The notes: a model not told the origin generated them from the sequence alone. Positions 5,801 to 27,181 are shown, counted from the stretch's first letter. The stretch is DNA of 27,181 nucleotides from Myxococcales bacterium (GCA_016794505.1 JAEUJZ010000076.1:192001-219181); one strand, 5' to 3'. Translations and numbers: made by a program.

Positions 5801-6081
5801 GGCTGACCTTCCCGGTACACGGCAGACGCCGCGGGCTTGGCAGCCGACCGCAGCACATAGGTCTCAAGCAGAGGATTCACCAACATGCCTTCACAGACAG
5901 CACGCGCCTTGGCTGCCGCTTGCTCGCTGTCGGCTTCGTCGACAGACAACAGCAAAAAGCGTCCAACCGACTGCGCGCTGCAGCCGTCATAGCCGCTGTC
6001 ATGCATCGCAGCCGAGATGGCATCCGCCTGTGGATCGCGCACACCCGGCCGTGGCTGCACGATGACTTCAAAGTGCGTCAT
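5797..6081 (-). CDS. purS: PurS subunit of FGAM synthase
   Basis: The ORF track gives a 146-aa ORF. The conserved ~94-aa PurS core begins at the internal Met, MTHFEVIVQPRPGVRDPQADAI...VNPLLETYVL. The ATG at 6079-6081 overlaps the purC TGA (ATGA coupling). Confidence 0.85.
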   Translation of the reverse strand: MTHFEVIVQPRPGVRDPQADAISAAMHDSGYDGCSAQSVGRFLLLSVDEADSEQAAAKARAVCEGMLVNPLLETYVLRSAAKPAASAVYREGQP

Positions 6082-6818: not shown

Positions 6819-7028
6819 GCACGCTGTCTTCCTTGCGAAGCGCTGCGTTGTTTGCCGTGAGATCGCGCAACCTTTGCACGCCGCGGTGAGTGCATCCCGC
6901 GCTGTGTTTTGTTGCGCGCAATGGGTGCTTCATCGGCCTTTCAAAGTCAAGTGACGTTTTTGTTTCTGAAGGAAAAAAAACGGAACGCGCTTGACGCAAG
7001 CCACCGGAACTCGCTAGAAGCACGCCCC
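6819..7028. promoter_or_regulatory. Divergent intergenic control region between purC (minus) and pyrD (plus); candidate sigma70-like promoter for pyrD and candidate purC promoter
   Basis: The region has an A8 run at 6973-6980. On the plus strand TTGACG (6991-6996) is followed by an 18-nt spacer and TAGAAG (7015-7020). On the minus strand TTGACT is followed by ~17 nt, upstream of purC. Hexamer assignments are weak. Confidence 0.3.
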
Positions 7029-8087: not shown

Positions 8088-8899
8088 CCATCGGCATGTC
8101 GCAGCGCGGACCGCTGTGCATTGGCCTAGATCCCGATCGCGATCGCCTGCCCGCCTGCGTGCGCGGTGATGTTGCCGTCTTCTTGCGCGAGATCATCGCC
8201 ACCACAGCCGATATCGCATGCGGCTTCAAGATCAACAGCGCGTTTTTCGAATCGATGGGTCTTGATGCGAGCGGTGAAGGCCACGTGCTTGCGAGCACGC
8301 GCGCGGCCCTGCCTTCTTCTGCTCTCTTCATCTGGGACGGCAAGCGCGGCGACATCGGCAACACCAATCGCCACTATGCCCACGCCGCGTTTGAAGTGCT
8401 GGGGGCCGATGCGGTGACAGTGCATCCGTATCTTGGCCTTGAGCCACTTGAGCCCTTCCTGCGCTACCGCGAGCGCTTGACCTTTGTCTTGTGCGCCACC
8501 AGCGAAGGATCACAGATGCAAGACCTTTGCATTTCTGATCGCGAAGGCGAAGCGATGGCGCAGCCGCTGTGGCAGTGGGTCGCGCGCAAGGTCGCGCAGC
8601 AAAGTGACGGTCAGTGCGGCCTGGTCGTCGGGGCAACGCAGCCCGAGCGCTTGGCCTGGGTGCGCAAGGTCGCTCCGCAGCTGCCGCTTTTGGTGCCGGG
8701 CGTCGGCGCGCAGGGCGGACAGATCCCGGCACAAGGAAGTGGAGCCCCCCTCTTGATCAACGCCTCGCGCTCGATCTTGTACGCGAGTGCGGGCCCTGAC
8801 TTTGCTGCGGCGGCACGCGCCGCTGCCCTGTCCCTGCGCACGGCGTGTGTCAACGCATCCGTCGCATCCGCGATCGCGCCGAACCCTGTCTCTCACTAA
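8066..8899 (+). CDS. pyrF: Orotidine-5'-phosphate decarboxylase (long/type-2 form)
   Basis: 277 aa with LCIGLDPD...KINSAFFE...WDGKRGDIGNT, giving the PyrF Asp-x-Lys-x-x-Asp and K..DIGNT motifs. It overlaps the pyrD 3' end by 22 nt. Confidence 0.88.
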   Translation: MSAQAKLAIGMSQRGPLCIGLDPDRDRLPACVRGDVAVFLREIIATTADIACGFKINSAFFESMGLDASGEGHVLASTRAALPSSALFIWDGKRGDIGNTNRHYAHAAFEVLGADAVTVHPYLGLEPLEPFLRYRERLTFVLCATSEGSQMQDLCISDREGEAMAQPLWQWVARKVAQQSDGQCGLVVGATQPERLAWVRKVAPQLPLLVPGVGAQGGQIPAQGSGAPLLINASRSILYASAGPDFAAAARAAALSLRTACVNASVASAIAPNPVSH

Positions 8900-12020: not shown

Positions 12021-12258
12021 GACTGCGCGCTTGCGTCAGGCAGCGATGGGAGGATCCTGCGCAGGTCGCTGGGCAGCGACAATTTTGTCCGGCTCGTCGT
12101 CAAATTCCTGAAGGGTTCTCGCAGAATAGAGTGCCCGCCATGCGCGAGTCCGACCGCAGTCCACCCGACTGGTATCCGCGTCGAGCCTTCATCCGAGCTT
12201 TGCGCCGCGTGGGCCCGCCGTGCTGCGCGTGGCATGTCCGTTGCTGTGGCATACGAAA

Positions 12259-13167
12259 ATGAGACCATCCCTGCGATTCATCGCCTGCCTTCTTTTGGTG
12301 TCCGTGGTTGGTACGTCGTCCGCAAGGGCAGCGGGCATCCAAGCAGAGACGCACGCAAACGAGCAGCGCGTGTCGTTTGCCCTAGGTGACGCCGGCATCC
12401 TGGTAGTCGATGACGGCGCACCCGCCGCCGAGCGCGTGCTGGCCACGCTGCCACTTGCTGCGCCCCTTTTTGATCTGCTGTTCATCGACAATCGCTTGTA
12501 TGTGGCGCGCGGTCCGGCTGGCATCACGGTGATCGATGTCAGCGATCACATGCGGCCCGTTGAGCTGTTCAGCTTCGGCAGCAACCACGCGCCCATCAAG
12601 CTCAGTCGTCAGGGCTCTTCGCTGGTGGCTGTCGACGATCGTGGCAACAAGGTGGCCTATGATCTAAGCCGGCGCGATACACCGCGACTCGTGCCGCCGC
12701 CGCAGCCGCCCGCACCGCCGGGAGAGAGAGCAGCATTCGCTTCGTTCCATCCAGCGGATGATCCGCCAAGGGACGTAGCGGTTCGTTTCATCGCGGCGGG
12801 TTCATCGCTGTTGGCAAGCAGTCTGATCGTCGCGGCCGTTGGCGCACTGCTGTTTGCTGCGAGCGACCAAGCCATCGCGCAGGATCGGCAGCGCCAGCAA
12901 GAACGGCAAGCTGCGTGCAAGCAGCGCATGGAGAGCGTCTGCGGCTGGTTTTATTTCTCGCTCGCCGGTCTGCCTGAGCTAGCGGCCGGCTACATCGTCG
13001 TGGGCCATGCCGTCCTGCGCAGCGCCGTGTCGATTCCGATCCTGGCGGTAGGACTGCACAAGCTTCGGCGATCTGCGACGGTGCGCCCGGTCGTGGCTTT
13101 CTTACCAGGCGCGCCTGCTACAACGCCGGGCGTGTTGGTCGGCGCGAACCTGGGGCTGCGCTTCTGA
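12259..13167 (+). CDS. Hypothetical secreted/membrane protein with LVIVD-like beta-strand repeats, a Pro-rich linker and two C-terminal TM helices
   Basis: A signal peptide (MRPSLRFIACLLLVSVVGTSSARA) is followed by the repeats ILVVDDGAP, ITVIDVSD and LVAVDDRGN, then PPPQPPAPP and two hydrophobic segments. No family was recognised beyond the repeat pattern. Confidence 0.55.
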   Translation: MRPSLRFIACLLLVSVVGTSSARAAGIQAETHANEQRVSFALGDAGILVVDDGAPAAERVLATLPLAAPLFDLLFIDNRLYVARGPAGITVIDVSDHMRPVELFSFGSNHAPIKLSRQGSSLVAVDDRGNKVAYDLSRRDTPRLVPPPQPPAPPGERAAFASFHPADDPPRDVAVRFIAAGSSLLASSLIVAAVGALLFAASDQAIAQDRQRQQERQAACKQRMESVCGWFYFSLAGLPELAAGYIVVGHAVLRSAVSIPILAVGLHKLRRSATVRPVVAFLPGAPATTPGVLVGANLGLRF

Positions 13168-13386: not shown

Positions 13387-15166
13387 TCAGCGCGAGGATG
13401 CATGGGCTACGCAGTCCTCGGCCGTGGGCACGCGGGGGATGACGATGTTCGTGTTGTTGGGATCGAACTGCGCCGGCAAATGGCAGCGAAGGAACGCCGC
13501 AAGCTGCTCGGGCCCGCGCGCTTCGGGCGAGACGTCCCATATGCGCGCCGTCTTGTCCCAGCTCGCGGTGACGATGCGCCGACCATCCGGGCTATACATC
13601 GCGCCCACCACGCTGCCCCCGTGGCCCATGAGAACGGCCTTGGGAGCGCCTGCGGCGTGGACTGTACTCGCGAGCAAGTCAGGCAGTGCCGCATCCTTGC
13701 TGCCTTCCGCCTGGGCTCGATGCAGCCAGAGCAGTCCTTCACTGGGGTTGCCGCGCTCAAAGACCAGCTGCCTGCCGCGCTCCACATACTCCAGGTGCGC
13801 AGCGCCGCCCAGTGATCGAACAGCGCCTCGTGCGTGACCTCGGCCAGAGGCTCAGCCCCGTCGCCGCTCAGCGTCACCAGGCGCGCCTGTTCGGTGGCAA
13901 ATTTTCGCAGCACCCCGAGCACACGCGCTTCCGTCTCGCCCCGCCCGCACAGCTCAGAAATCGGAGCCCGACGCCGCGTGTCGCGCGTGCCTTCGCCGAG
14001 CCGCACCAAGCGCACCAGCGCCCGCTGCGCCGTCGCTTGCTTGCTCGGATCGAGCTGGTTGCAGATCGCCTGCGCCTTGCCGGCCAGCGCACCGCCGACG
14101 CCGCCCATTTTTCGCAGCGTCTCGCCGGGCTCTTGGCCTGCGTGCATGCCCTCCCAAATGTTCGTCAGCGCAAACTCAAGCAGCGGCAGCGTGCCTTCGT
14201 TGCCCCAAGCCTGATCGAGCAGCAGCTCGACCGTCGCATCGTCGATCGGCTGGCCGGCTTGTGCGGCGGGCTCTGTGATGGCCTGGCGCAGCTCGTCGCG
14301 GTTCATCGCCGTCACGATGACTTCCTGCGCGCCAATCAAGCGATGGAGCTCGACGTGATGGCGGTGCGTCTCACCCAGGAAGTCGCTGCGCAGCGTCAGC
14401 ACGATCGACACATGACGGCTGCGCGCGGCGGCGGCGTGAAGCAGGACACCGATGAAGGCCTCGCGCTCGTCCTTGTGGCTGCACAGCGTGTAGACCTCTT
14501 CAAGCTGATCGACCAACACGACAAACGGCGACCGCTCGACGCCGGGCCGACTCGCCGCCCACTGGCTGAGCCCATCGAATTCGCCGCGCCCATTGGGCTT
14601 GCGCAGAAAGTCGGCCAGGTCCCGCTGCGCCGATAGCTCGGCTGCCGTCGCCGGATTGTGGCCCGGTGGCAAGAGCGCCATCGCCAGCACGCCGACCGGA
14701 TGTTCCCCGGCTTGAACGCGATGGACTGCAGCGGATCCGGCCCCGGAATCGGCGCGGTCTGAAGCTCGGCCAAAAGCCCCGCTCGCGCCACCGACGACTT
14801 GCCCGAGCCCGACGGCCCCAGCACCGCCAAAAGCCGCGTCGATCCCGCCTGCTCGTACAGCGCCTTGAAGCGCTGCCAAAGTCGCTCGGTCAGCTCGTCG
14901 CGGCCAAAGAACAGGTCGGTCTCGTCGACTTGGAACGCCGACAGCCCACGATACGGATTCTTCGCGGCCTGGCCCGCTGCCGACCGAGGCGACAAGAGCA
15001 GCCGCTTGTGCCGCGCAGCGCGTCGCGGATTCCTTTTCGAAAGGGCCGCGACCAGCTCTTCGCCGTCGACGATCTGCCGTTTATGGGCTCGGCTGCGTCC
15101 CGTGGCTTCGCAGCGTTCACCTCGTCCGCCCCATCGGCCTGACTGCTGTGTCCGCTCTCTGGTCAT
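13387..15166 (-). pseudogene. Degraded STAND (NACHT-like) NTPase with a single C-terminal WD40 repeat, disrupted by two frameshifts and truncated
   Basis: Three consecutive reading frames carry successive parts of one protein. Frame 1 (ORF 14396..15232) has NPYRGLSAFQVDETDLFFGRDELTERL...LAVLGPSGSGKSSVARAGLLAEL, i.e. Walker A. Frame 2 (ORF 13407..14879) has HRVQAGEHPVGVLAMALLPPGHNP...VVLVDQLEE (Walker B-like)...LPLLEFALTNIWE...EALFDHWAALRTW. Frame 3 (ORF 13387..13785) has ERGRQLVFERGN...LMGHGGSVVGAMYSPDGRRIVTASWDKTARIWDV, one WD40 repeat, then a stop. The frame switches fall near 14725-14740 and near 13790. Confidence 0.6.
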
Positions 15167-15725
15167 TCTTGCAAAATATCTGCATTCATATTTGAATATT
15201 AAAATCAAACCCATAATTAGTTTACTTGCCATACATCACCTGCAATTCACGATGCGCCATGTAGTAATTTACATAAATATAATATCTCCAATAAAACTCT
15301 ATCGACTCTACACGGGATCCACTATCTGCATTTGACAGGAAAAACCAAGCGGCTCCACAGGGTCTCATTTCGGCAATGATCTCGCGACTTCGCTCTAGAG
15401 CGTTTGCTCCATCCGCCGACATTACCGCCAGGGAGGTCCACCGACAGAGTGGCTTGCCTTGCAATGTTTGCACAGATAAACAAATCATCCACATTGATTA
15501 TTGAAACGGATAGGCATGTCACTAATAACATTCTTCATACATTCCAGATAAATCAGGATTATTTTCAATGATAAATTAACGTGTGAATCGACACAAAAAA
15601 CAGAACCCAGCGGCCGCGTACGACCGCAGGCCATGCCGAGCTTGGGGCGCGCACGGCCGATACGAAAAAAGGATTTTGATACTGTCTAAAACAAGCTACG
15701 ATAGGTTCCTATGAGGAGTATTGGC

Positions 15726-16265
15726 ATGCGACATGGTGAGATCCTGCCTGTTGTATTTTCGCTGAGTATGACCGCTTGCTTTGGGATGTTTGGGGACTCA
15801 AGCAGAGACGAGGCGACCCCAGGGCGAAGCCGCTTTCCCATCAGACCACTGCCGCGGGTCGCGATGGAAAACCCCGCGCTGCTCGATGCCGCCATTCGGG
15901 GGCTAAACCCGTCGGATAAGGAATATCAGCTCTTCCATGCCCACATCGCGAGCCAGCCAAGGTACATGCGGCACCAGATGTCCGGGCAGCTTATAGCCCG
16001 ATGTTACGACTTCGCCCTCGTCTACCACACCCGCACGACGCCGCCGGCCTGCCACTGGAGCGTCTTTCGACTCTGCCAAGAACACCTGGGCAACGGCACC
16101 TTTGCCGAAGAGCTGACCGTCCCCCGCCTTTCAATCGCCATCGCCTCCGGGGGAATCGAGTGCAACAGCCCCGAATTGCCGCCAGGGGTTGCTCCGAAGC
16201 AGCCTCCTCCCGCGGCGACGGCACCCGCGGCGACGGCACCCGCGGCGACGGCACCGCCGCAGTAG
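15726..16265 (+). CDS. Small secreted or lipoprotein-like hypothetical protein with a C-terminal (ATAPA)3 repeat
   Basis: GAGGAG lies 6 nt upstream of the ATG at 15726 (the ORF track starts at 15711). The N-terminus MRHGEILPVVFSLSMTAC is a hydrophobic h-region ending in Cys, a non-canonical lipobox. The C-terminus reads AATAPAATAPAATAPPQ. Confidence 0.5.
   Translation: MRHGEILPVVFSLSMTACFGMFGDSSRDEATPGRSRFPIRPLPRVAMENPALLDAAIRGLNPSDKEYQLFHAHIASQPRYMRHQMSGQLIARCYDFALVYHTRTTPPACHWSVFRLCQEHLGNGTFAEELTVPRLSIAIASGGIECNSPELPPGVAPKQPPPAATAPAATAPAATAPPQ
16212..16256. repeat. 15-bp perfect or near-perfect tandem repeat x3 (gcggcgacggcaccc) inside the 3' end of the CDS above
   Basis: Direct reading: gcggcgacggcaccc gcggcgacggcaccc gcggcgacggcaccg. 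It encodes the ATAPA repeats. Confidence 0.9.
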
Positions 16266-16550: not shown

Positions 16551-18737
16551 TCAGGCGTCCGCTGCGACGAGCTGGTCGGTCGGCATGGGCAGGGGGGTGC
16601 TGGCGGACTGAAGAAGGGTCGTGCCGCTGTCTGGAAGCTGCAGCCAGATGAGCTGGCTTGTCGCTTGGGTGTTGAACACAGCGACGAGCTCGCGCTTGCC
16701 TTGGCCGCGGAAGTCGCCGACGGCGAAGTCGCTCAACGTCGCTCCGGGCAGGGATGCAAGCGAGAACGAAAACTGGCTTCCCCCCAGGGGCCGATCCGTG
16801 GCGCCCAGATACGCGCGTAGCTGCTGTGGCTCGCCAAGAATCAGATCCGTCAGGCCGTCGCCGTTGAGATCTGCGAGTCGAATCATGCGACTCGCCGGAG
16901 GCAAAAACCACGGCAGGAAGTTCGCGTCGGGCGTTACGAATGCGCTCTGAAAAGAACAGGGCTGCGTCTTCACGCCGAGTAGGAACCACAGCTTGCCATC
17001 GTCGCTGCGCGCCACAATGTCTGGAGCGCCATCGTTGTCGATGTCGCCGACTTCTAGCTGTCCGACGGGATCGGGCACCACAGCGAGCTGGCGCGTTCCG
17101 GGTTGGCCGCTCAGCGTGACCAGCTCGACGGCGCGGTTGGCGTTGGCTCCGATGATTTGTGTGGGCTGATCCGCGCACTGGATCGTGGTGGCCGTTACAA
17201 ACGGCATCGATACCGTCTGCGAGCTGGGGCAGCTAAACCCTTGGTTGCCATCGGGGCCGCAGCGCAGAACCAGGCTGGCGCCGCCGCTTCCAGCCACGGC
17301 AAAGTCGCTGCTGCCCGCCGCGGCAAACGAGCCCGAAAGCACGATGGCGTCGGGGTTGTTCGTGCCGTCCCGACGGAAATCAAACGGCAGGGTAAAGCTT
17401 GCGGTGGCGCCGCCCTGATTGCGGGCGATCGACAGCGTTGCGCCCTCGCTGCTGTCATTGAAGACGACGATGTCATCGCGCGAGCTGCCCACGGCAAAGT
17501 GCCCGGTCACCACGTGCTCGCCGATCAAGCTGCGGTTCGCGATGCGCGCGGGCGCGCTGGCCCAGCCGCCGCCGCCGGCATAGACCGAAAGAAAGCCATA
17601 GGCATGCAGCACCACCAAGTCGTCGAGCTGGTTGGCAACCGAGCCGCTAAGCAAGCGCCCGACCGCAATCTTTCCTTTGTTGGGCGGCCGGTAATCCAAG
17701 TCATACGTGGCAAGATTGATAACGTCTTTGTTTATGACGTTGCTCTCAACAGATTGAAAAATTTCAAGATCTTGCGGGCCGCTGACAACGACTGCGTCGT
17801 AATTGGTGGGATTCCTAAAATGACCGACTACAACGTCCGATGCTCTGTTGCTAACCACAAATGACATGATCGTGGGAAGATAATTTGCGGCAAATCGAAT
17901 CTTTCCTAAACGACCATCCGCGCCACTGCCAGAGGAATACGATATCAATATGTCTTGCGTATTCACCGTGGCATTTCTATATGCAGGAACCGCCATGGAA
18001 GTTGGAACATAACCAGAAAATTCGGCATCTGAGATGATCGATCTTGCGCGCTCATATCCCATTGGCATTTTATTTGCCAGTATATCAATTCCATTTGAAA
18101 TATAAGCAACAGCAATATCTTTTTTGTTATCGCCATTGAAATCACCAATGGCTATGCCGCGCGGTTCGGATACCAGCGCAGGGACAGCGGGGGCAGCTTG
18201 CTGATTGCCCATGATCAGATCGACGTAGGCGTTCGTACCAGAGAGCACCACGGCGACGTCGTCCTTGCCATCGTCGTCGATATCAGCGACAGCGGCCATC
18301 TCTGGATTTCGCCCAGGCTGACTGTAGTTACCAAAACTAATAACTGGAGAACCTGCCGATGGGTTCATAATTTTCGTATATCTCTTTTTTCCCATCACAA
18401 AAATGTCATCAAGACCATTGCCATCAAAATCTCCGCGATAGAGAAGTCCCTGTTCTGAAGTCATTATGTCGTTGATTTTTTCAATCGACAACAGAGCTGG
18501 CGCAATCAGCTCCACTGGACTATATGGCAGTGTTCCACCATCGCTACCACCATCAACCATATCGGCAATATCGGCCATGACGCAGCGATGCAATGACTCA
18601 TGACAACGCATCCCAGCCATGCACCTTCCATCATTCGGCTCACAGTAATCAGGATCTTGCTGACTGAGGCCACCGAATAAATGTTCACAAGCCACTGCCA
18701 GAAAACACGAAAACACGAATAACGTTCGATACCGCAT
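16551..18737 (-). CDS. Large secreted protein or lipoprotein with multiple FG-GAP (integrin-alpha-type beta-propeller) repeats and an N-terminal Cys-rich module
   Basis: The signal peptide is MRYRTLFVFSCFLAVAC. A Cys-rich stretch follows: CEPNDGRCMAGMRCHESLHRC. At least 6 Ca-binding FG-GAP motifs are present: GDFDGNGLDDIFV, ADIDDDGKDDVAVV, GDFNGDNKKDIAVA, GDIDNDGAPDIVA, ADLNGDGLTDLIL and GDFRGQGKRELVAV. AGGAGG lies 5 nt upstream of the ATG. The 5' third of the gene has visibly lower GC. Confidence 0.85.
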   Translation of the reverse strand: MRYRTLFVFSCFLAVACEHLFGGLSQQDPDYCEPNDGRCMAGMRCHESLHRCVMADIADMVDGGSDGGTLPYSPVELIAPALLSIEKINDIMTSEQGLLYRGDFDGNGLDDIFVMGKKRYTKIMNPSAGSPVISFGNYSQPGRNPEMAAVADIDDDGKDDVAVVLSGTNAYVDLIMGNQQAAPAVPALVSEPRGIAIGDFNGDNKKDIAVAYISNGIDILANKMPMGYERARSIISDAEFSGYVPTSMAVPAYRNATVNTQDILISYSSGSGADGRLGKIRFAANYLPTIMSFVVSNRASDVVVGHFRNPTNYDAVVVSGPQDLEIFQSVESNVINKDVINLATYDLDYRPPNKGKIAVGRLLSGSVANQLDDLVVLHAYGFLSVYAGGGGWASAPARIANRSLIGEHVVTGHFAVGSSRDDIVVFNDSSEGATLSIARNQGGATASFTLPFDFRRDGTNNPDAIVLSGSFAAAGSSDFAVAGSGGASLVLRCGPDGNQGFSCPSSQTVSMPFVTATTIQCADQPTQIIGANANRAVELVTLSGQPGTRQLAVVPDPVGQLEVGDIDNDGAPDIVARSDDGKLWFLLGVKTQPCSFQSAFVTPDANFLPWFLPPASRMIRLADLNGDGLTDLILGEPQQLRAYLGATDRPLGGSQFSFSLASLPGATLSDFAVGDFRGQGKRELVAVFNTQATSQLIWLQLPDSGTTLLQSASTPLPMPTDQLVAADA

Positions 18738-18762
18738 AACTCCTCCTACTGCATACGTGTTC

Positions 18763-20400
18763 TTATTTCATCGGGCCAGGAATGCCAACAAGGACACCGC
18801 CAGCGATCGCCACCCCCAGCCCGACGCTCAGCGTGATGGCACCGGGGATCGTGGTGACATAGCGGCGCTCGCAGGTGCCACCATCCACCAGCGGTGGCTG
18901 AACACACTGGTCGTGAATGCTGAGCATGGCGACGCCAAAGCCGGCGGTCACAAGCCCGCCAAGCATCGCCACGCTGCCCAGTGCCAGACGCCACGTCGGG
19001 CGCGGCTGCTGACGCGGCAGAAGCGGCGGCGGGGGCGGCGGGATCAAGGCGGCGGGGGCTGGCTCTGCTTCCAAGAGGCGAATGTCGAGCGTGCGCTTTT
19101 CGCCCGCGCGCAGAGTCAAGCGCTGTTCGTCAGAGGCATAGCCGGGCTTGTTCACCACGATGTGATGCTCGCCGGCAAACACCGCCTTGCCATAGCGACA
19201 CACGGGAAGCGCGGTTCCGTCGAGCACCAGCGCGGCATCGGCAGGCTCGCAGGTGATGGCAAGCTCGGCGCGCGGGCGACCGCTGCCCTGCTCATAGACG
19301 CGGCTCACCATGGCAAGCAGGCTGGCCCCTGCCTGTTCGGCGACAAGGCCGGCCGTGCGCAGCTCCTCCATCGCGGCGGCTTGTTCCACGACGGTGTCGA
19401 TAAGTTGGACGCGCATGTGCAGGGTCTCTTTTTCGATCTCGCCCCGCACGTGCAAGATCGCTTCGGCTTCGACCTGCTTGGCTAGCTCGATCTGGCAGGC
19501 TGTTTCTTGCAGACAGTCCCCCAGCTTGTGACTTGTCGACGGCAGCAACGAGACGGCCAGCTCACTTCCCAGCGGAGACACGCGTCGCGACAGCAAGGCC
19601 TTTTCGATCGACTGCCGCAGCCGCGCTTGCAGCTCAGGGGACAGGCCGGAAAAGTCCGAGACCACCAGCACACCCGGCAGCGTGCTTTGAAGCAGCGTGC
19701 GGCTCGACACATCGCTGCGCAGCTCGCCGAGACGACCGGCGGGGATCTGCACCGTGTCTTCGATGCGCTTCTGATGAAGCTCCAGCACGATCGAGTGCTC
19801 ACGCGGGCTCACAAGCAGCGGCAGCGCCAGCGGCAGCACCCCCACAAGACGGCCGTCGACATAGACCCGCGTGCCTCGCTCGCCCAGGATGTTGAGGGTT
19901 CCGGCGAGCGGGCGCCGCTGGCTTAGGACCTGCTCGGCCTCTTTGATCTCGGGCGACACCCCGCCTGGGCTTGTGCCGGTGCGGGCCTGCGCTTCGCTCT
20001 CGTTCTCTAGATCGGGGTCGGCCAGATAGCGACGCATCAAGTCGTGGGCGTCGAGCTCACGCTGTTCGGCCAGCGCCAAGCGTCCCAGATCATGCAGCCC
20101 CTGCGGACTGGGCGCCGCCGCATACGCCGCGCTCAACAGACGAGCCGCATCGGCAAACCGCGCGGCCTGCAGCGCCACAAGCCCCTCACTGCGCAGGCGA
20201 CTGGCGTCATCCTTTTGGGCCGAAGACGCGCTGGCCCGGCTGCTGTGCGTTTTGCTTCGGCTCTGCGCCGCGCTCGGCACAAGACCGCTCAGCAGCAGAA
20301 CCAAACACAGCCAGCCTCGGGAACGTGTCCTTCGTCGCGGCTGCGATTGCGCCACCAGCTTTACCGCTCTCTGGTCGGCGCGCTGGGCCCCCCTGCGCAC
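18763..20400 (-). CDS. PEGA-domain membrane protein (signal peptide, helical/TPR-like region, two PEGA-like beta-sandwich domains, poly-Pro linker, C-terminal TM helices)
   Basis: Read from the translation: a leader WLCLVLLLSGLVPSAAQ; PEGA-like GTRVYVDGRLVGVLPL...SPREHSIVLEL; a second PEGA-like region CEPADAALVLDGTALPVCRYGKAVFAGEHHIVVNKPGYASDEQRLTLRAGEKRTLDIRL; a PPPPPPLLP linker; and two hydrophobic C-terminal segments. The stop lies 25 nt upstream of the FG-GAP gene start, so the two genes are probably co-transcribed. Confidence 0.8.
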   Translation of the reverse strand: MRRGAQRADQRAVKLVAQSQPRRRTRSRGWLCLVLLLSGLVPSAAQSRSKTHSSRASASSAQKDDASRLRSEGLVALQAARFADAARLLSAAYAAAPSPQGLHDLGRLALAEQRELDAHDLMRRYLADPDLENESEAQARTGTSPGGVSPEIKEAEQVLSQRRPLAGTLNILGERGTRVYVDGRLVGVLPLALPLLVSPREHSIVLELHQKRIEDTVQIPAGRLGELRSDVSSRTLLQSTLPGVLVVSDFSGLSPELQARLRQSIEKALLSRRVSPLGSELAVSLLPSTSHKLGDCLQETACQIELAKQVEAEAILHVRGEIEKETLHMRVQLIDTVVEQAAAMEELRTAGLVAEQAGASLLAMVSRVYEQGSGRPRAELAITCEPADAALVLDGTALPVCRYGKAVFAGEHHIVVNKPGYASDEQRLTLRAGEKRTLDIRLLEAEPAPAALIPPPPPPLLPRQQPRPTWRLALGSVAMLGGLVTAGFGVAMLSIHDQCVQPPLVDGGTCERRYVTTIPGAITLSVGLGVAIAGGVLVGIPGPMK

Positions 20401-20518
20401 GCGCCCATGATAGCAGCGCCCTCAGACGACGTGTCGAACCAATTGCGCGCGGGTTCTGCGCCGCTTGCAGCAAAGTGAGCCAGCCGGAGCTAGGGATGTT
20501 TTTATATAGTGATCTCTC

Positions 20519-22840
20519 GTGGACAGAGCTGTCTTGCCCACACCAAAGCGGGTCGTATGCTTGGCCGCGCTGTGTCTTTGGCTCGTGGCCATGGGTCACG
20601 CGCACAGCCACACAAAGGCGGAATCTGCAGCCGGACCGCCTCTGCGGGCCCAGCAAATCGTGCGCTATGCCGGCGCCTGGGAATATCGCTTTGGCGACTC
20701 GCCCCGCGATGCAGCCGGCGAGCTTCTGTGGACTCGACGAGCGACGTCGGCTGCGTCCGAGTGGCGCCCCATTGCCCTGCCGAACAGCCCACCGGGACAT
20801 GGCGATCATCGCTTCTTGTGGCTGCGCAGTCAGCTTGTCGGCCCGCCCATCGCAGATCCGGCCTCGCGGCCGGCGCTGTTCCTTTTGGTCGTCGACCAGA
20901 TCTTTGAAGCCTATGTCGATGGCAAGCTGGTCTATCGCTTCGGTGTTCTCGACGGCGATGGACCGCACGTTCGACAGTTTCTCGGCTACAAACCGCACTA
21001 CATTCCGCTTGATCCGGCGTACCAGGGCAAGACGCTGGCCCTGCGCATCTATTCCGACCACATCAACATCGGCGTGGTCGGAGAGCCCTATCTGGGCAGC
21101 CAGCTGGCCTTAACCAAGGCCACCGTCGTGCGCGGGCAGAGCAAGTTCATCACAGGCGCCATCCTGATCGTCGTCGGGCTCGCGGCGCTGGGGCTGTGGC
21201 TCGTGCAGCGCGAGGCGCAGACGCTGCACTACGCCGGCTTTGCCATCACCGTCGGCATCTGGAGCCTCTGCCAGTCGCAGAGCCGCATCCTATTTCTCGA
21301 CAACGCCCTTTTCTGGGTCCACATCGAGATGTGGGCGCTGTATCTGATTCCCGGTTTCTTGGTGGGCTATCTGATGAGCTTCCTCGGGCCGGGACCCTTT
21401 CAGCTCAACCTGCGCTTGATGCAGCTGTTTTTTCTGTACGCCATCGGGGCCGCGCTGCTGGTGTTTCTCGGCGGTGTGCCACTGATGGCCACCTGGCTGC
21501 CAGCCGTGCTGCTCATGATGTCGATGGCGATCTACATCACCGGCATGACCGTGCTCGCCATCTTGCAGGGCCACGTCGAAGCGCGGATCTATTTCGCGGG
21601 TCAGTGCGTCGCCGTGCTGTTCTTTCTGTACGACACCCTGGCGTCGATGGGCATCTTGCCGCGCCACGACACGACGACCAGCCACATCGGCATCGGGGCG
21701 TTTGTCGTGTCGATGGGTGTCTTGGCCGCGCGCCGCTTCATCTTGTTGCAGCGCGAGCACCGCGTCACGGCCAGCGAGCTGCAAAAGAGAGTGCAAGAGG
21801 CGCAGCAGAAAAGCAGCGAGCTGCGCATGCTCAACGACGAGCTCATGCGCCAGATCGATCAGCGCTCGCGCCGCTTGCTCGATGCGCTGCTGGCTCGCAT
21901 CGACGAAGACAGCGGCGACCCCACGGCCGGCATTCAGCCGCTTGCCGCGGGCAGCTTGCTCAATGAAGCCTATCGCGTCGTGCGTCCCATCGGTGCCGGT
22001 GGCTTCGGTTCCGTCTATGAAGTCGAGCGCATCGCTGACGGGCAGCACCTGGCCGCCAAGCTCATCGCGGGCTCGGCCAACCGCGGCGCTCTTCTGCGCT
22101 TTGGACGCGAAGCCCAGCTCTTATCGCGCCTGCATCACCCCAACCTGGTCAGCATCTTCGACGTCGATGTCACCGCCGATTCCCGCCTGTTCATCATCAT
22201 GGAGCTCGTGCAAGGCGTCACCCTGCGCGACGTACGCCAGCGCTATGGTGACCCCCGCTGGGCCCTACCCATCCTGCAGCAGATCGCCGCCAGCCTCGCC
22301 GCCGTCCACGAGCGCGGCATCGTGCATCGCGACTTGAAACCCGCGAACATTCTCTTGACGGCGTCCGCGGTCGACGAGCCGCCGCGCGTCAAGCTGGTCG
22401 ACTTTGGCATCTCGGTCCTGGCCCGCGAAGATGGACGGCCCGAGCCCACGCCGACGCCGTCCAAGCGCAGCGAGGCCACGAGCTTGCTGCCCGATGCCAC
22501 CAGCACAGGCGTCTTGGTCGGCACGCCCGCTTATATGGCGCCCGAGCTCTGGGTTGGCTCGCGCTTGGCGCAGGTCTCGTCCGACATCTTCAGCTTTGGC
22601 GTCATCGCCTATGAGCTCCTGACGCGCAAGATGCCGTACGAGAGCCCCGCCGTGCGTTCCATGCTGCGCAGCGAGCGCCTGCCCATTCCCGCCGAGCTTC
22701 GCACCTGCGCCGAGCTCGATCCCGCGCTCACCCAGCTCTTCGAGCGCTGCTTGGGACTCGAACCCAGCGAGCGCCCCACCGCCGCCGAGCTGGCCCACGC
22801 TCTCTCGCAGGCTCTGTCCGCCCCGCCGCCTGCGGCCTAG
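20519..22840 (+). CDS. 7TMR-DISM-type receptor (extracellular 7TMR-DISMED2-like domain plus 7 TM helices) fused to a C-terminal Ser/Thr protein kinase
   Basis: The N-terminal extracellular region is ~190 aa (LWLRSQLVG...LFLLVVDQIFEAYVDGKLVYRFG...RIYSDHINIGVVGEPYLGSQ). Seven hydrophobic helices follow, spanning ~200 aa, then a coiled-coil (ELQKRVQEAQQKSSELRMLNDELMRQ). The Hanks kinase motifs are IGAGGFGSVY, AAK, HRDLKPANILL, DFG and GTPAYMAPE. The start is GTG at 20519, with TTG at 20534 as an alternative. Confidence 0.88.
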   Translation: MDRAVLPTPKRVVCLAALCLWLVAMGHAHSHTKAESAAGPPLRAQQIVRYAGAWEYRFGDSPRDAAGELLWTRRATSAASEWRPIALPNSPPGHGDHRFLWLRSQLVGPPIADPASRPALFLLVVDQIFEAYVDGKLVYRFGVLDGDGPHVRQFLGYKPHYIPLDPAYQGKTLALRIYSDHINIGVVGEPYLGSQLALTKATVVRGQSKFITGAILIVVGLAALGLWLVQREAQTLHYAGFAITVGIWSLCQSQSRILFLDNALFWVHIEMWALYLIPGFLVGYLMSFLGPGPFQLNLRLMQLFFLYAIGAALLVFLGGVPLMATWLPAVLLMMSMAIYITGMTVLAILQGHVEARIYFAGQCVAVLFFLYDTLASMGILPRHDTTTSHIGIGAFVVSMGVLAARRFILLQREHRVTASELQKRVQEAQQKSSELRMLNDELMRQIDQRSRRLLDALLARIDEDSGDPTAGIQPLAAGSLLNEAYRVVRPIGAGGFGSVYEVERIADGQHLAAKLIAGSANRGALLRFGREAQLLSRLHHPNLVSIFDVDVTADSRLFIIMELVQGVTLRDVRQRYGDPRWALPILQQIAASLAAVHERGIVHRDLKPANILLTASAVDEPPRVKLVDFGISVLAREDGRPEPTPTPSKRSEATSLLPDATSTGVLVGTPAYMAPELWVGSRLAQVSSDIFSFGVIAYELLTRKMPYESPAVRSMLRSERLPIPAELRTCAELDPALTQLFERCLGLEPSERPTAAELAHALSQALSAPPPAA

Positions 22841-22888
22841 GTTCCTGCGATCCCCCCTGTCCAGCGCCCTGCCCCTTCGGCCGCGGTC

Positions 22889-24310
22889 TTAGGCTCGCGC
22901 GCTGCGTCCGCGAAACGTCGTCGGGTCGATGCCGTATTGATCGAGCCAGCGGCGGAACTGACGGCGCGAATAGCCCGATGCCGCTTCGATGTGGGTCAGG
23001 TTGCCGCGATGCGCGACCAGAAGCGCGACCAGCTGATCTTTTTCCGGGATCGGATCGCCGTGCTGCCAGCTTCGCGGGCGCGGCGCAGCCGAGCGCGGCG
23101 GCGTGCTCACAGCGGGTGCCGGCGACAGCGCAACGGCCACCCCGCGTGCGAGCGCTGGCGTCAGCGCCTGCAGGACTTCTTCCTGTACATCCACCGCATC
23201 CGCACCGGCATCGGCCAGCCGCCGCACCACATGACCTAGCTCGCGGATGTTGCGCGGAAAGTCATAGCGCAGAAGCGCCGCCACCAGCTTCGGCGACAGC
23301 ACCAGCGCGCCCCCGACATACTTCGCGGCCAAAAGCAGGATGTCTTCGCGCCGCTCGCGCAGCGGAGGCAGCGAAATCGTCTCCGCCGCCAGGCGCGCAT
23401 ACAAGTCCTCGCGAAACTGGCCCTCGTGCAGTGCCGCCGACAGGTCGCGGTTGGTCGCCGCGACGATGCGCACCGAGCGCCGGATCGGTCGCTGGCTGCC
23501 GACCGCAAACACCTCGCCGGTTTCCAGCACCCGCAAGAGCTTGGGCTGTAGCTCGCGCGGCAGATCCCCGACTTCATCGAGAAACAGCGTGCCGCCCTCG
23601 GCCTCGCCAAACAGCCCGACGTGCGGCACCGCCCCCGTAAAGGCCCCGCGCGCAACGCCAAACAGCGTCGCTTCCGCCAGCGAAGCCGGGATCGCCGCGC
23701 AGTTCACCGCCACAAGCGGCCCCGTGCGTCCGCTCGCGCTGTGGATCGCCTGCGCCGTCACGTCCTTGCCGGTCCCCGACTCGCCCGTGATCAAGACCGA
23801 GCGCTCGCGTCCCGCCACCCGCGCGATCGCCGCGCGCAGCCGACAGGCCGCCTGCGACACGCCGATCAGCGTCGGAATCTCGGCATCGGCAAGCGCCACC
23901 GGCTCGCGCCGAACGATCAGAAACGAATCGCCGAGCCGCAGCACATCGCCGTCCACCACCGCCTGCGCCTGCCCGTTCGCCAGGCGCGCTCCGTTCAGAA
24001 ACGAGCCATTGCGGCTGCCCAGATCCTCGACGAGGACCTCGGCGCCCTGTCTGTACAGCCGGGCGTGCTCGCGCGATACCCGCTCGTCTTCGATCGAAAG
24101 CCAGCTCTCGTCCGGCTCGCCGCGACGCCGCCCCAGGCCCAGCGCCCGGCTCGGCTGCCACGTCTGCGCCGCCCCATCGCTGATGCCGCGCCCCCCAACA
24201 TAGACCACGCGCAGCCGCAAGGCCTCGCCAGCCGTCCGCCCTCGTCCCTCGGAGCGCGAGCCATCCCCCGTCGGACCACTCGTCTCTAGCTCGGCAAGCT
24301 CTGGCCCCAT
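22889..24310 (-). CDS. Sigma-54-dependent transcriptional activator (enhancer-binding protein) with an N-terminal FHA domain and a C-terminal Fis-type HTH
   Basis: The FHA-like N-terminus reads LGRRRGEPDESWLSIEDERVSREHARLYRQGAEVLVEDLGSRNGSFLNG. The AAA+ sigma-54 interaction domain carries GESGTGKDV (Walker A), the GAFTGA loop and FLDEVGDL (Walker B). The C-terminal HTH reads VALLVAHRGNLTHIEAASGYSRRQFRRWL. I chose the ATG at 24310; the ORF track uses GTG at 24340. Confidence 0.9.
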   Translation of the reverse strand: MGPELAELETSGPTGDGSRSEGRGRTAGEALRLRVVYVGGRGISDGAAQTWQPSRALGLGRRRGEPDESWLSIEDERVSREHARLYRQGAEVLVEDLGSRNGSFLNGARLANGQAQAVVDGDVLRLGDSFLIVRREPVALADAEIPTLIGVSQAACRLRAAIARVAGRERSVLITGESGTGKDVTAQAIHSASGRTGPLVAVNCAAIPASLAEATLFGVARGAFTGAVPHVGLFGEAEGGTLFLDEVGDLPRELQPKLLRVLETGEVFAVGSQRPIRRSVRIVAATNRDLSAALHEGQFREDLYARLAAETISLPPLRERREDILLLAAKYVGGALVLSPKLVAALLRYDFPRNIRELGHVVRRLADAGADAVDVQEEVLQALTPALARGVAVALSPAPAVSTPPRSAAPRPRSWQHGDPIPEKDQLVALLVAHRGNLTHIEAASGYSRRQFRRWLDQYGIDPTTFRGRSARA

Positions 24311-24410
24311 CGAGCCACTGGATGTCCCTTTTCGCACCACCCTTGCATGCTACGGACACCGCCGAAAAAAAGACAAGCGCCCCGCCCATCCTCGCCGTCC
24401 TCTGGGGCGA

Positions 24411-24434
24411 CTTCTCGGCTTGCTTCTCGGCTTG
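24411..24434. repeat. 12-bp perfect tandem duplication (cttctcggcttg x2) in the EBP/hypothetical-gene divergent intergenic region
   Basis: Seen directly in the sequence. It lies 55 nt upstream of the ATG at 24489. Confidence 0.8.
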
Positions 24435-24488
24435 CCTGGGATCGGATGACTGCGTACGCTGCCGCCACATTTCCCCAAGGAGGGTCCG

Positions 24489-25235
24489 ATGGCCTCGAAA
24501 CAAGTCCTCGATCGACAGAAACTGACGAGCCTCGTCGTCGCCGCCGGGCAGAGCCATGGCGCCCTGATCGCGCAGCGCCTGGGCGACACGCTCTTGCCCT
24601 ACGTCAAGCGCGGCGAGACGCTGCCTGACCTCAAGCTCGTGTCCGATCTCTGTCTGCGCTGGCTGTCCGACGCCGAGTCCACGCTCGTCGCAGCCGATCT
24701 CGCCCACGAGCGCGAGCTGGCCGATGACTCGGAACCGCGCCGCCGCCGCGATGAGCACGCCGCCGCCCTGCGCGAGCAGCTCATCGACCTGCGCGATCTC
24801 GTCAGCGCGCTGTATGGAACCGATGCCACCCTCGCCCTGGGCATGTCCGGCGAGACCCCCACCGACGCCGTGGCCCTGTCGCGTCAGGGTAAGAACGTCC
24901 TTTTGGCCCTCGCTAGCGTGCGCCTGCCCAAGCCGCGCCGTCGCGGTGCCGAGCTTTCCCCCAAAGAGATCGAGGCCGAGCTAAAGCCCGCCGTAGCCGC
25001 CCTCGATCAGGCGCTCGCCGACGTCGCCCGCGAGTCCCGCGAGGCCCAAGCGACCCTGGCCGCCCGCGACACCGCCTGGGCTGAATTCGAGCGCCGCTAC
25101 AGCGCCACCACCGCCGTCCTCGCCGCCCTCCTCGCTGCAGCCGGCGAGACCGCCCTCTCTGAAAAGCTGCGCCCCAGCGCCGGCCGCAAGCCGCAACCCC
25201 AGCCCGAACCCGAGCCCGCCCCCGCCCCCACCTAA
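24489..25235 (+). CDS. Hypothetical acidic, predominantly helical protein with a C-terminal PQPEPEPAPAP low-complexity tail
   Basis: AAGGAGGG lies 5 nt upstream of the ATG. The product is 248 aa with no TM segment and no recognisable motif. It is divergent from the sigma-54 EBP gene. Confidence 0.55.
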   Translation: MASKQVLDRQKLTSLVVAAGQSHGALIAQRLGDTLLPYVKRGETLPDLKLVSDLCLRWLSDAESTLVAADLAHERELADDSEPRRRRDEHAAALREQLIDLRDLVSALYGTDATLALGMSGETPTDAVALSRQGKNVLLALASVRLPKPRRRGAELSPKEIEAELKPAVAALDQALADVARESREAQATLAARDTAWAEFERRYSATTAVLAALLAAAGETALSEKLRPSAGRKPQPQPEPEPAPAPT

Positions 25236-25296
25236 CAGCCCCCAGCCAAGCCTTCCTTACATGTAGGGAAAGCTCCCCGAAACGCCTGTTCTAAAT

Positions 25297-25492
25297 TAAA
25301 ACGCGCGCTCCAAGCCCTCCCAAACGCCTCCCAAAATTTACGACGCCCCCGAAAAGCCCTGCCAAACGCCCCCAAAAACTCAGAACACCCGCTCCAACCC
25401 CTCCCGAGCGCCTCCCAAAATTTCCGACCCCCCCAAAAAACCCTTCCGACCCCCCCAAGACATACGACGCCCCCAAAAACCCCTTCCGATCC
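25297..25492. repeat. Duplicated ~90-100-bp C/A-rich element (the plus strand is C-rich and G-poor; the minus strand carries G4-G7 tracts) in a convergent intergenic gap
   Basis: The two copies share cgctccaa[g/c]ccctccc[aaac/gagc]gcctcccaaaattt[a/c]cgac... and acgacgccccc[g]aaaa[g]ccc. On the minus strand the runs GGGGGG, GGGG, GGGGG, GGGGGGG, GGG and GGGGGGG are closely spaced. Confidence 0.8.
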
Positions 25493-25521
25493 CCCCGCTT
25501 TAGAGCATGTTCAAGCTCCGG

Positions 25522-25866
25522 CTAGATGTGCTTCACATTCGCGCCCGCCTCGCGCGCATCCAGCTCTGTCTGCACGCGATCCAGCAAGGTCTGCAGCCAC
25601 TGCCGCTGCTCCGCTTCGGTGACGAGGTAGCGGTTGGCGTTGGTCGCGATCAGTCGCAGCGGCAATTCATGTTGGCCCAGAAAACGCTGAGCATCTGCTA
25701 GCACCTTCACTATCCAGCTTGGATCGTATTCCAGAACCGCTTGTTGCGTAATCTCCGCGTCCGTCTGGCCATCGTCGGGATCAGCGAACAACGCCAACAG
25801 GGTGGACAAACTTCGGTACTCCTCAAAGAATCGCTTTTCCTCATTTGAGGTAGGCCGTGAGGACAT
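25522..25866 (-). CDS. Small hypothetical protein (114 aa), third gene of the putative toxin/immunity module
   Basis: A strong RBS (AAGGAGG) lies 6 nt upstream of the ATG at 25866. The product is acidic and helical (…LADAQRFLGQHELPLRLIATNANRYLVTEAEQRQWLQTLLDRV). No family was recognised. Confidence 0.55.
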   Translation of the reverse strand: MSSRPTSNEEKRFFEEYRSLSTLLALFADPDDGQTDAEITQQAVLEYDPSWIVKVLADAQRFLGQHELPLRLIATNANRYLVTEAEQRQWLQTLLDRVQTELDAREAGANVKHI

Positions 25867-25948
25867 AGAAGCCTCCTTGCAAGTCTCGCTCTAGAACCAC
25901 CTTCGCCACAGTGTGCGGCGTTGCCCGCAGCGACCCGTTGCCGAGCCC

Positions 25949-26575
25949 TCAAAACCAGTGCGCCGCTTCCTCCGCCGGCACGAGCGGGCAATTCAACAGC
26001 CCATTCTCCTCGACGAACCGCTTGAAGTGCTCGTCGACCAGCACCTCGCCAAAGCCGCGCACCGTGCAGATGTTTTCGCGTGGTTCTTCTTCCAGCACGA
26101 TCCGCTCCCAGCCTTTCTTGATTCCGCCCTCGCGGCACACGTCACATGGCGGCGATGGTGGCTCCACCCACTGCATGCCTGAGGCCACAAAATCGAGCGC
26201 CGCCTGCGAGCGCTGCGCCACGACGCGGAAGTACGCGGGCGGTGCGTCCTTGAAGCGCTTGCCACGCCGCACCACCTTCACGATCTCCACCGGCTCAAAT
26301 CCTTCCAAACCAATCAATCCCGACTTCAGCCACAGATCTTTGAAGCGCTCGCTGATCAGGATGCTCTCGCCAGGACCAAAGGCCATGTCGCCGAAGCGCT
26401 TGCCCCAGGTTTCTAGCTCGGCGCGCAGAGGGGGTGCCCAACGAAACATTCCGATCGGCCCGCCACAGGCCAGGCAGTTTGGCCCATCACTCACGTTATG
26501 CGGGTCTGCCTGGATAAAATCCGTCGTCGCCGCATAGCTGGGGTCGGTATGCTTCAGCAGATAGATCTTCTTCAT
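25949..26575 (-). CDS. Double-CxxC-motif protein (208 aa) resembling the myxobacterial 'double-CXXCG' paralogous family; candidate immunity or Zn-ribbon protein
   Basis: Two Cys pairs are present, NCLACGGP (CxxCG) and CDVCREGG (CxxC). The ATG overlaps the upstream gene's TGA (ATGA at 26572-26575). The family assignment is from memory of the TIGRFAM description, not from a search. Confidence 0.6.
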   Translation of the reverse strand: MKKIYLLKHTDPSYAATTDFIQADPHNVSDGPNCLACGGPIGMFRWAPPLRAELETWGKRFGDMAFGPGESILISERFKDLWLKSGLIGLEGFEPVEIVKVVRRGKRFKDAPPAYFRVVAQRSQAALDFVASGMQWVEPPSPPCDVCREGGIKKGWERIVLEEEPRENICTVRGFGEVLVDEHFKRFVEENGLLNCPLVPAEEAAHWF

Positions 26576-27181
26576 TTCGACTGCTCTCTCTGGATGGCTT
26601 CAAACCCGTTGGGGAAGCGCTGCTTCAGCTCGGGACGCTCATATAGCGAGCGTAGATACGCCTCGAAGTTCTCCGGTGTCGCTTTCCTGTTGTCATAGAT
26701 CCACTTCGAAATCTCCTCATCGAGTTCGCGGTGCCAGCTTTGGTACCCGCGGTGTGCGTCGTCATCTCCTGCGCGCAGCACAAAACGCGGATCCCGCGGT
26801 TGATATCGGCCGCGCAAGATGCGGTGCTCTTCTAGTGCGCGATGCACCCGCCGCGAGATCGCGTGATGCATCTGCCCTGGTTTTAACGGCGCATCGATGT
26901 GCTCTGCGATACTCGGCTTGGTGCGCAGCGGTCCGCGGCCGCCGAGCTTGCCCAAGAACGGCAACAACAACTGCGCGCCCTGCGCCTCGGGATTGCACGT
27001 GATCTCGCGATAGATCTGCATCCCGAGCACGGCGGCACGACCGCCGAAGTCGTCATTCGCAACGACGGCAGCCCAGCCTGCATCAATGCCCTGCGGAATC
27101 GGATCGAGCTTCCCTTCGCACAGCTTCGGATCCGGCTCATGGCGCATCAAGCCGTCGACGTAGTCGAGGACGGCTTTGTGC
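26572..27181 (-). CDS. C-terminal ~200 aa of a larger protein (the gene continues past the window end); His-rich motifs suggest an HNH/EndoVII-fold (AHH-like) nuclease toxin domain
   Basis: The frame stays open to the window edge (...HKAVLDYVDGLMRHEPDPK...). Motifs are GQMHHAISRRVHRALEEH (xHHxI...H...H), DDAHRGYQSWHRELDEEISKW and the tail ATPENFEAYLRSLYERPELKQ. No signal peptide is visible in this part. Confidence 0.45.
   Translation of the reverse strand, partial: HKAVLDYVDGLMRHEPDPKLCEGKLDPIPQGIDAGWAAVVANDDFGGRAAVLGMQIYREITCNPEAQGAQLLLPFLGKLGGRGPLRTKPSIAEHIDAPLKPGQMHHAISRRVHRALEEHRILRGRYQPRDPRFVLRAGDDDAHRGYQSWHRELDEEISKWIYDNRKATPENFEAYLRSLYERPELKQRFPNGFEAIQREQSK

Follow-up and report, generated by a model that had tools for sequence, protein, structure and literature searches.

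FHA-type activators of sigma-54 transcription are abundant in myxobacteria, and we know of none with a defined kinase, binding site and promoter. The question of how such an activator receives its signal, and where it acts, is raised by a stretch of 27 181 nucleotides from a Myxococcales bacterium (GCA_016794505.1, JAEUJZ010000076.1:192001-219181; hereafter the window, with positions counted from its first letter). Here the gene for a receptor Ser/Thr kinase (20519-22840, plus strand) and the gene for an FHA-type sigma-54 enhancer-binding protein (EBP; 22889-24310, minus strand) are convergent, with 48 bp between their stop codons (22841-22888). A first-pass annotation of this DNA took the two for a dedicated pair, in which phosphothreonine made by the kinase is read by the FHA domain of its neighbour, and named the acidic-protein gene divergent from the EBP gene as the natural target and the PEGA/FG-GAP operon as the other candidate. 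The explanation that we consider best overall, and hold with evenly balanced confidence, is that the window contains two intact signalling genes of a Polyangia-type myxobacterium together with a dispersed EBP cassette whose target is at position 12230.

The activator gene encodes 473 amino acids (aa) from its ATG, with Pfam matches to FHA (E 5e-14) and Sigma54_activat (E 2e-57). The FHA domain (23909-24142, minus strand) is delimited by a hidden Markov model (HMM) match and by invariant columns of an alignment of 27 clade members (A2), in which the phosphothreonine-binding residues G60-R61, S79-R80-x-H82 and N101-G102 never vary; these residues, on whose presence the first-pass annotation had staked its proposal, are thus intact. 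The sigma-54 interaction AAA+ domain (23204-23869, minus strand) contains Walker A (GESGTGK, aa 176-182), GAFTGA (aa 222-227), Walker B (LFLDEVG, aa 242-248) and the R-finger region, and is followed by a C-terminal helix-turn-helix (HTH; aa 436-456, 22943-23005, minus strand) that was placed by a C-terminal alignment and whose helix is conserved in the clade. With a GAFTGA-bearing AAA+ core and a C-terminal HTH the protein has the make-up of a sigma-54 activator. The first reading of this gene, as an activator with an FHA input domain converging on the 3′ end of the kinase gene, therefore stands, except as to a Fis-type HTH: the HTH_8 model found no match in it, and Pfam gave a weak match to HTH_28 (E 7.5e-4, below cutoff). 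None of the protein's threonines is invariant within the N-terminal 165 residues of the 27-member alignment, so the phosphothreonine ligand probably acts in trans, on another protein. The identical EBP protein is recorded in Logan assemblies, flanked there by the genes that flank it here, and its 90% cluster contains MBL9005716.1, from a Myxococcales metagenome-assembled genome (MAG).

The candidate target derives from relatives of this protein, of which our search found at least 7993 at E<=1e-30; besides a 94% cluster, the nearest among the matches listed are 57-60% identical. The window EBP has the same recognition helix, GYSRRQFRRW, as P0121-P0135, and this helix differs in more distant FHA-EBPs of the C-terminal alignment. 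Three of the closest relatives (P0123 at locus L008, P0124 at L009 and P0125 at L102) share a common synteny consisting of a Pkinase gene, the EBP gene, a gene of 135-159 aa and a gene of 280-293 aa. Between the EBP stop codon and the next gene these three loci have a conserved promoter, TGGCA[CT]CGGGCTTGCT, scoring 15.9 bits, and in an alignment of the three spacers (A3) conserved copies of CGTCGCTGCCCAGC recur 117-150 bp upstream of this promoter. A fourth relative (P0122 at L103, 60% identity) has the same layout of 13-mers and promoter, the latter weaker at 12.7 bits, before a different, secreted protein gene. All four closest relatives thus have exact copies of GTCGCTGCCCAGC directly after the EBP gene and 117-150 bp upstream of a sigma-54 promoter. 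Across about 0.96 Mb, comprising the fetched loci and the window, this exact 13-mer occurs only at the sites of the four relatives and once in the window, at 12068-12080 on the minus strand, where 0.02 matches were expected by chance. The single window copy is held within a perfect palindrome, GTCGCTG-GG-CAGCGAC (12065-12080), which we regard as a candidate upstream activating sequence.

The same part of the window contains its best sigma-54 -24/-12 element, TGGCATGTCCGTTGCT (12230-12245, plus strand), with 17.9 of a possible 18.15 bits in a position weight matrix (PWM) scan. This was the sole outstanding match, the maximum over 30 shuffles being 16.4 bits. A search for the consensus TGGCAC-N5-TTGC showed no enrichment (33 matches versus 41 expected). 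The palindrome is 150-165 bp 5′ of the promoter element, and its 13-mer copy 150-162 bp. A PWM search for -24/-12 elements had been suggested for the surrounding 2 kb and the genome; near the pair it found nothing credible, and its near-consensus site is the one at 12230-12245. Between the EBP and acidic-protein genes (24311-24488), the top site is TCGCACCACCCTTGCA, which scores 10.5 bits, lacks the -24 GG and is under the shuffle background, so the acidic-protein gene is not supported as the natural target it was taken to be. The 12-bp tandem repeat noticed in the same spacer is real (CTTCTCGGCTTG in 2.1 copies, 24411-24435, plus strand); it is unrelated to the upstream activating sequence of the EBP subfamily and no -24/-12 element follows it. 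Consensus and PWM scans also gave no credible sigma-54 site upstream of the PEGA gene (20300-20520), and the PEGA/FG-GAP operon is unsupported as a target on the same ground. Of the sites in and around the pair and at 12230, the promoter at 12230, 10.6 kb from the EBP gene, is the likeliest local target, rather than the acidic-protein gene or the PEGA operon.

The gene directly downstream of this promoter (12259-13167, plus strand) is a candidate sigma-54-dependent target of 302 aa, judged from its translation, its G+C pattern over the three codon positions, which is coding-like, and its protein cluster. This cluster has 13 members, the gene having been called in 13 assemblies, and includes MBL9005709.1, an accession seven numbers from the EBP's MBL9005716.1 in one MAG contig. 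The protein has a signal peptide and a weak LVIVD-like repeat region (Pfam LVIVD E 0.02), and its hydrophobic C-terminal stretches suggest that it is membrane-anchored. It belongs to a small family of about 290-305 aa, with further repeat matches in giant proteins. The target genes of the relatives (those of 135-159 aa and 280-293 aa, and the secreted protein gene of L103) have no homologue among the window genes.

The kinase gene encodes 773 aa, or 768 aa from the alternative TTG start five codons downstream that was chosen by the gene caller. Pfam recognizes 7TMR-DISM_7TM (PF07695; aa 214-402, E 1e-14, exceeding the gathering score) and Pkinase (aa 485-760, E 9e-46). The Hanks-type kinase domain (21971-22798, plus strand), delimited by Pfam, motif positions and the family alignment, has the complete set of Hanks motifs: GAGGFGSV (aa 492-499), AAK (512-514), E531, HRDLKPAN (603-610), DFG (628-630) and TPAYMAPE (669-676). 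According to the family alignment, a Thr/Pro-rich insert in the activation loop is conserved across the family. An AlphaFold2 model of aa 31-472, built on a 17-sequence family alignment (predicted local distance difference test score, pLDDT, 85), has an N-terminal beta-sandwich, seven transmembrane helices and a seventh helix that continues into a coiled coil of about 50 residues. On this model, together with Foldseek and Pfam, the gene divides into an extracellular beta-sandwich sensor domain with a conserved WEYRxGDSPR motif (aa ~41-194, 20639-21100), seven transmembrane helices (aa ~195-410, 21101-21748) and a cytoplasmic coiled-coil linker prolonging the seventh helix (aa ~411-465, 21749-21913, part of a single long helix 388-465), all on the plus strand.

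The extracellular domain matches no Pfam family at E<=1, 7TMR-DISMED2 included. In a Foldseek search the modelled beta-sandwich resembled the sugar-binding jelly roll at the N-terminus of GH2 glycosidases (E about 2e-4, probability 1.0), and the predicted fold would be a galactose-binding-like jelly roll, which fits DISMED2-like folds without proving membership. The architecture described by the first-pass annotation is therefore correct in its seven helices and its full set of Hanks motifs, while its 7TMR-DISM extracellular domain goes unmatched in Pfam and the label 'carbohydrate-binding-like' holds at the level of the fold only, since its basis is the Foldseek likeness to the GH2 jelly roll. 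The combination of 7TMR-DISM and Pkinase is rare and little described: it forms about 24 clusters among 5.8 billion proteins, with Polyangiaceae the sole name given by any source, none of the papers listed in our literature search mentions both domains, and we found none on a cognate kinase for an FHA-EBP. Homologues of the sensor and membrane module were also seen outside Myxococcota, in L039, L040 and L043 (Sporomusaceae, 27-31% identity) and in L042 (Brevinematales, 43% identity over the best segment). None has a kinase domain downstream, and so the module also serves other kinds of output.

Orthologues of the kinase were found at 81%, 80% and 68-70% identity. A block just 5′ of the kinase start (20480-20545) is shared with the locus of the 81% orthologue (L004, 9960-10025) and reads ATGTTTTT[A/G]TATAGTGATCTCT..., with a TATAGT hexamer resembling a -10 element inside it. 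The block is probably the kinase's own sigma-70-type promoter; a sigma-70 scan over 20200-25400 returned zero sites.

Is the adjacency of kinase and EBP kept in relatives? An alignment of the sensor and seven-helix region, searched against one genome per GTDB species, yielded 32 kinase-family loci, mostly from Polyangia/Myxococcales, in most of which a kinase domain directly follows the sensor. In tblastn and HMM searches, no FHA-EBP came to light within 8 kb in any of the 32. At the loci of the 81% orthologue (L003/L004), the divergent PEGA and FG-GAP genes are retained at 66% and 51% identity, and downstream of the kinase stands an unrelated 767-aa gene, with no homology to window positions 22841-27181. 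Upstream of the 68% orthologue (L005) are a radical SAM gene and a histidine kinase/receiver-EBP pair of the classical kind; the partial gene downstream was considered as an EBP C-terminus and rejected, since it looks like a fragment of a peptidase gene. FHA-EBP adjacency is likewise absent in L012-14 (66-68%). Seen from the EBP, a kinase gene is present 5′ of it in three of its four closest relatives: in L008, L009 and L102 the Pkinase gene is directly upstream on the same strand, with gaps of 23-129 bp. Its product shares only 36-40% identity with the window kinase. As a separate observation, these three independent assemblies all break at the kinase HRD motif (L008 1-860, L009 1-870, L102 2-811), of which the likely cause is conserved DNA repeated among many kinase paralogues. 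The EBP of L009 and the 68% kinase orthologue belong to one MAG (GCA_964628555.1), where they are on separate contigs in different contexts.

Judged from gene order, the kinase/EBP adjacency is lineage-specific and without support from conservation, and the claim of a dedicated pair is weakened on both sides, as kinase-family loci lack an FHA-EBP and EBP relatives pair with a different kinase. A cognate module would be expected to be co-transcribed, as in L008, L009 and L102, or divergent with a shared control region; to keep its adjacency in orthologues; and to have a site array and a sigma-54 promoter flanking the EBP gene. The window genes are convergent, their adjacency is not conserved in orthologues, and a distance of 10.6 kb separates them from the matching site and promoter.

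The association of Ser/Thr kinases with FHA-type sigma-54 activators as a class, which the first reading also asserted, is borne out. A pattern restricted to the FHA region was searched against metagenomes and, with duplicates removed, gave 32 FHA-EBP loci. A kinase domain was found within 1 kb of the EBP gene in 12 of these, whereas a background of one extra kinase per 32 kb would give about 1.5 (Poisson P 7e-8); counting the width of the kinase domain about doubles the expected number, and the enrichment stays significant. By orientation, six kinases are co-directional with the EBP gene (three upstream of it and three downstream), six are divergent and one is convergent, this last in a locus (L054) that also has a divergent kinase. 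Convergent pairs thus occur at about the chance rate and, because the enrichment stems from the co-directional and divergent arrangements, the window's convergent orientation is the sole class without enrichment. Sigma-54 sites of at least 12.5 bits were found within 350 bp of the EBP gene in 11 of the 32 loci versus 1.2 expected (P 5e-8); the window EBP gene has none within this distance. One Logan contig encodes Pkinase, FHA and Sigma54_activat in a single polypeptide of 805 aa (P0196, a singleton cluster). The general logic leading from kinase through FHA to sigma-54 is well supported, whereas the specific pairing in the window is not.

An FHA-EBP locus with a sensor of the 7TMR-DISM family was also seen. 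In L071 (also L094), a Ser/Thr kinase gene (7293-8750) lies downstream of the FHA-EBP gene (5950-7308) and overlaps it. A divergent sigma-54 promoter of 16.8 bits (5722-5707, minus strand) is preceded by tandem GGCGGCCCGATC repeats. This promoter heads a series of minus-strand genes, encoding proteins of 442 aa and 224 aa, a TPR protein, an FGE-sulfatase, a 145-aa protein and then the sensor, which is cut by the locus edge.

In the mechanism that we propose, the periplasmic jelly roll and the 7TMR-DISM membrane module of the kinase would signal through the coiled coil to the C-terminal Hanks kinase, and the EBP, being of the FHA type, would take as its input phosphothreonine on another protein. 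The YSRRQFRRW subfamily appears in related genomes as a compact cassette of EBP gene, GTCGCTGCCCAGC array, sigma-54 promoter and target genes. In the window this cassette would be dispersed, with the sole matching combination of site and promoter at 12065-12245, before the 12259-13167 gene. The adjacent 7TMR-DISM kinase is the best local candidate for the source of phosphothreonine, in a pairing that is specific to its lineage. The domain architectures, the integrity of the motifs, the unconserved adjacency, the co-occurrence of motif and promoter and the class-level enrichments are observations; we infer the DNA-binding specificity, the promoter use and any phosphotransfer or docking between kinase and EBP.

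That the EBP, or a paralogue of its subfamily, acts at the 12065-12245 site and promoter 12230 is a prediction from sequence on which we are evenly divided, and several points weigh against it. With just 14 nt between the -12 element and the ATG at 12259, the mRNA would have almost no leader. The window has a single palindrome where the relatives have arrays, and the 13-mer is absent near the EBP genes of L010 and L044, which encode the same recognition helix at 53-54% identity. The link to the motif was found post hoc, from four related loci of which three are mutually orthologous, and the PWM is one that we built to approximate the published consensus. The true binder could also be a closer paralogue encoded elsewhere in the genome. 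A related reading gives promoter 12230 to a different EBP altogether and puts all targets of the window EBP outside the window; we regard it as possible, though on the doubtful side. Myxobacterial genomes encode dozens of EBPs, the large number of relatives found here is in keeping with such a crowd, and, judging by L010 and L044, a 13-mer beside the gene cannot be predicted from the recognition helix by itself. Such a reading has to account for the exact 13-mer occurring elsewhere only beside the four closest relatives of this very EBP, and for its low chance expectation in the window.

The input side is open to more than one account as well. That the neighbouring kinase provides the cognate input of the EBP seems to us rather unlikely, given the convergent orientation, the lack of conservation in orthologues and the absence of any enrichment of convergent pairs. 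The stronger proposal of a dedicated pair, in which the kinase autophosphorylates, the FHA domain of the EBP binds to it, the EBP becomes activated and the two control the acidic-protein gene or the PEGA/FG-GAP operon, is less likely still. It draws on the closeness of the two stop codons, the class enrichment of kinases adjoining FHA-EBPs along with the P0196 fusion, the convergent precedent in L054, the sensor of the 7TMR-DISM family 4.7 kb from the FHA-EBP/kinase operon in L071 and the Thr-rich activation loop of the kinase. It has to contend with an adjacency missing from the 81% and 68% orthologues and from all 32 family loci, an arrangement not above chance, the lack of a credible upstream -24/-12 element at either proposed target, acidic-protein orthologues that are unlinked to EBPs and a 12-bp repeat unrelated to the binding motif of the subfamily. 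In another account, to which we give somewhat less than even credence, the two genes are chance neighbours in separate circuits, the kinase working with the PEGA/FG-GAP surface proteins or other substrates and the EBP with a kinase encoded elsewhere in the genome, orthologous to the operon partner of its relatives. The synteny of kinase, PEGA and FG-GAP genes persists at 81% identity while the downstream side differs, the partner kinase of the EBP relatives is a distant one, and GCA_964628555.1 has the 68% kinase orthologue and a 57% EBP relative on different contigs; with a background of about one kinase per 32 kb, chance adjacency is not rare in these genomes. The enrichment of kinases beside FHA-EBPs nevertheless raises the prior for any adjacent kinase, and the alternative kinase for the EBP is hypothetical. 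A full pathway, from an extracellular and possibly glycan cue through kinase phosphothreonine, EBP, palindrome and promoter 12230 to a secreted LVIVD-like membrane protein, strikes us as improbable as a whole.

Known systems offer partial parallels. FHA-domain NtrC-like activators of Myxococcus xanthus were reportedly described by Jelsbak, Givskov and Kaiser in 2005. Like the window EBP, they have an FHA domain in place of the receiver, followed by a GAFTGA-bearing sigma-54 AAA+ domain and a C-terminal HTH, and the logic proposed for them, from Ser/Thr kinase through phosphothreonine and FHA to sigma-54 transcription, is the same. The window EBP differs in coming from a Polyangia-type MAG, in being at most 45% identical to the Corallococcus/Myxococcus matches listed, and in belonging to a subfamily with its own recognition helix and candidate binding motif. 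We know of no cognate kinase shown biochemically for the M. xanthus activators. The closest analogy is PknH-EmbR of Mycobacterium tuberculosis, an experimentally established pairing in which the FHA domain binds to the phosphorylated kinase before the regulator is itself phosphorylated. There too, a transmembrane receptor Hanks kinase is encoded beside an FHA-containing transcriptional activator. EmbR, however, is a SARP/OmpR-type sigma-70 activator rather than an AAA+ sigma-54 activator, PknH has a single transmembrane helix and a different sensor, and the window pairing is a candidate one.

The receptor half recalls the 7TMR-DISM receptors, such as RetS/LadS of Pseudomonas aeruginosa, which Anantharaman and Aravind are said to have described in 2003. 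These share with the window kinase, as modelled, a periplasmic jelly roll (carbohydrate-binding-like), seven transmembrane helices and a cytoplasmic signalling domain. In the window, the output is a Hanks Ser/Thr kinase and not a histidine kinase, GGDEF domain or phosphatase, the sensor is unrecognized by the 7TMR-DISMED2 model, and those members named by a source are Polyangiaceae MAGs. The classical two-component system NtrB/NtrC is comparable in its AAA+ activator, in binding sites about 100-150 bp 5′ of a -24/-12 promoter and in a target operon that is often beside the regulator; unlike it, the window EBP has phosphothreonine as its input through FHA instead of receiver Asp phosphorylation, and there is no histidine kinase. 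PexR was considered for comparison and set aside as irrelevant, being a GAF-type EBP.

Several other features of the window were recorded. Its G+C content is 64%, purine and pyrimidine biosynthesis genes occupy the 5′ end, and an Rfam scan of the whole window returned no match. No terminator-like site was reported in the spacer between the convergent stop codons. Divergent from the EBP gene, the acidic-protein gene (24489-25235, plus strand) encodes an all-helical protein of 248 aa, whose family is conserved in Polyangia and lacks a Pfam model. The genes around its orthologues differ: at one locus (L104) an FHA-EBP and a divergent kinase are found 3 kb off, three loci (L105-107) have no EBP nearby and another (L108) has an extracytoplasmic function (ECF) sigma factor gene upstream. 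As none is next to an FHA-EBP, the acidic protein was rejected as a conserved EBP partner. Following this gene is an intergenic region (25315-25496) of C-rich, degenerate repeats of about 42 bp, in about four copies with 68% matches, which have no Rfam match and no obvious function.

On the other side, divergent from the kinase gene, is the PEGA/FG-GAP block (16551-20400), consisting of the PEGA gene (18763-20400, minus strand) and the FG-GAP gene (16551-18737, minus strand). G+C content is markedly lower in the 5′ half of the FG-GAP gene (0.42-0.56) than in its 3′ half (0.62-0.69). Because the orthologue in the 81% lineage (L004, 6010-8178) is likewise split, this is a conserved compositional feature within one gene. 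Further along, an nSTAND1 NTPase gene (13407-15232, minus strand) is split into overlapping open reading frames (ORFs) in different frames (13407-14879 and 14396-15232), perhaps through a frameshift, decay into a pseudogene or an error in sequencing. A strongly AT-rich intergenic stretch (15150-15700, G+C about 0.41) separates it from a small ORF (15711-16265).

The window EBP is a further myxobacterial FHA-EBP, and what it adds is a testable prediction of a binding site and promoter. Two handles on this class of regulators result from the analysis: kinases and sigma-54 promoters are strongly enriched beside FHA-EBP genes, and one subfamily combines a conserved 13-mer with a fixed recognition helix. 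In practical terms, attention belongs at promoter 12230 and not at the two neighbouring genes, with the kinase as a candidate input only. If the full pathway were true, it would be, to our knowledge, the first route from receptor kinase through FHA to sigma-54 to be defined from sensor to promoter, and the binding motif would let the regulon be read across Polyangia.

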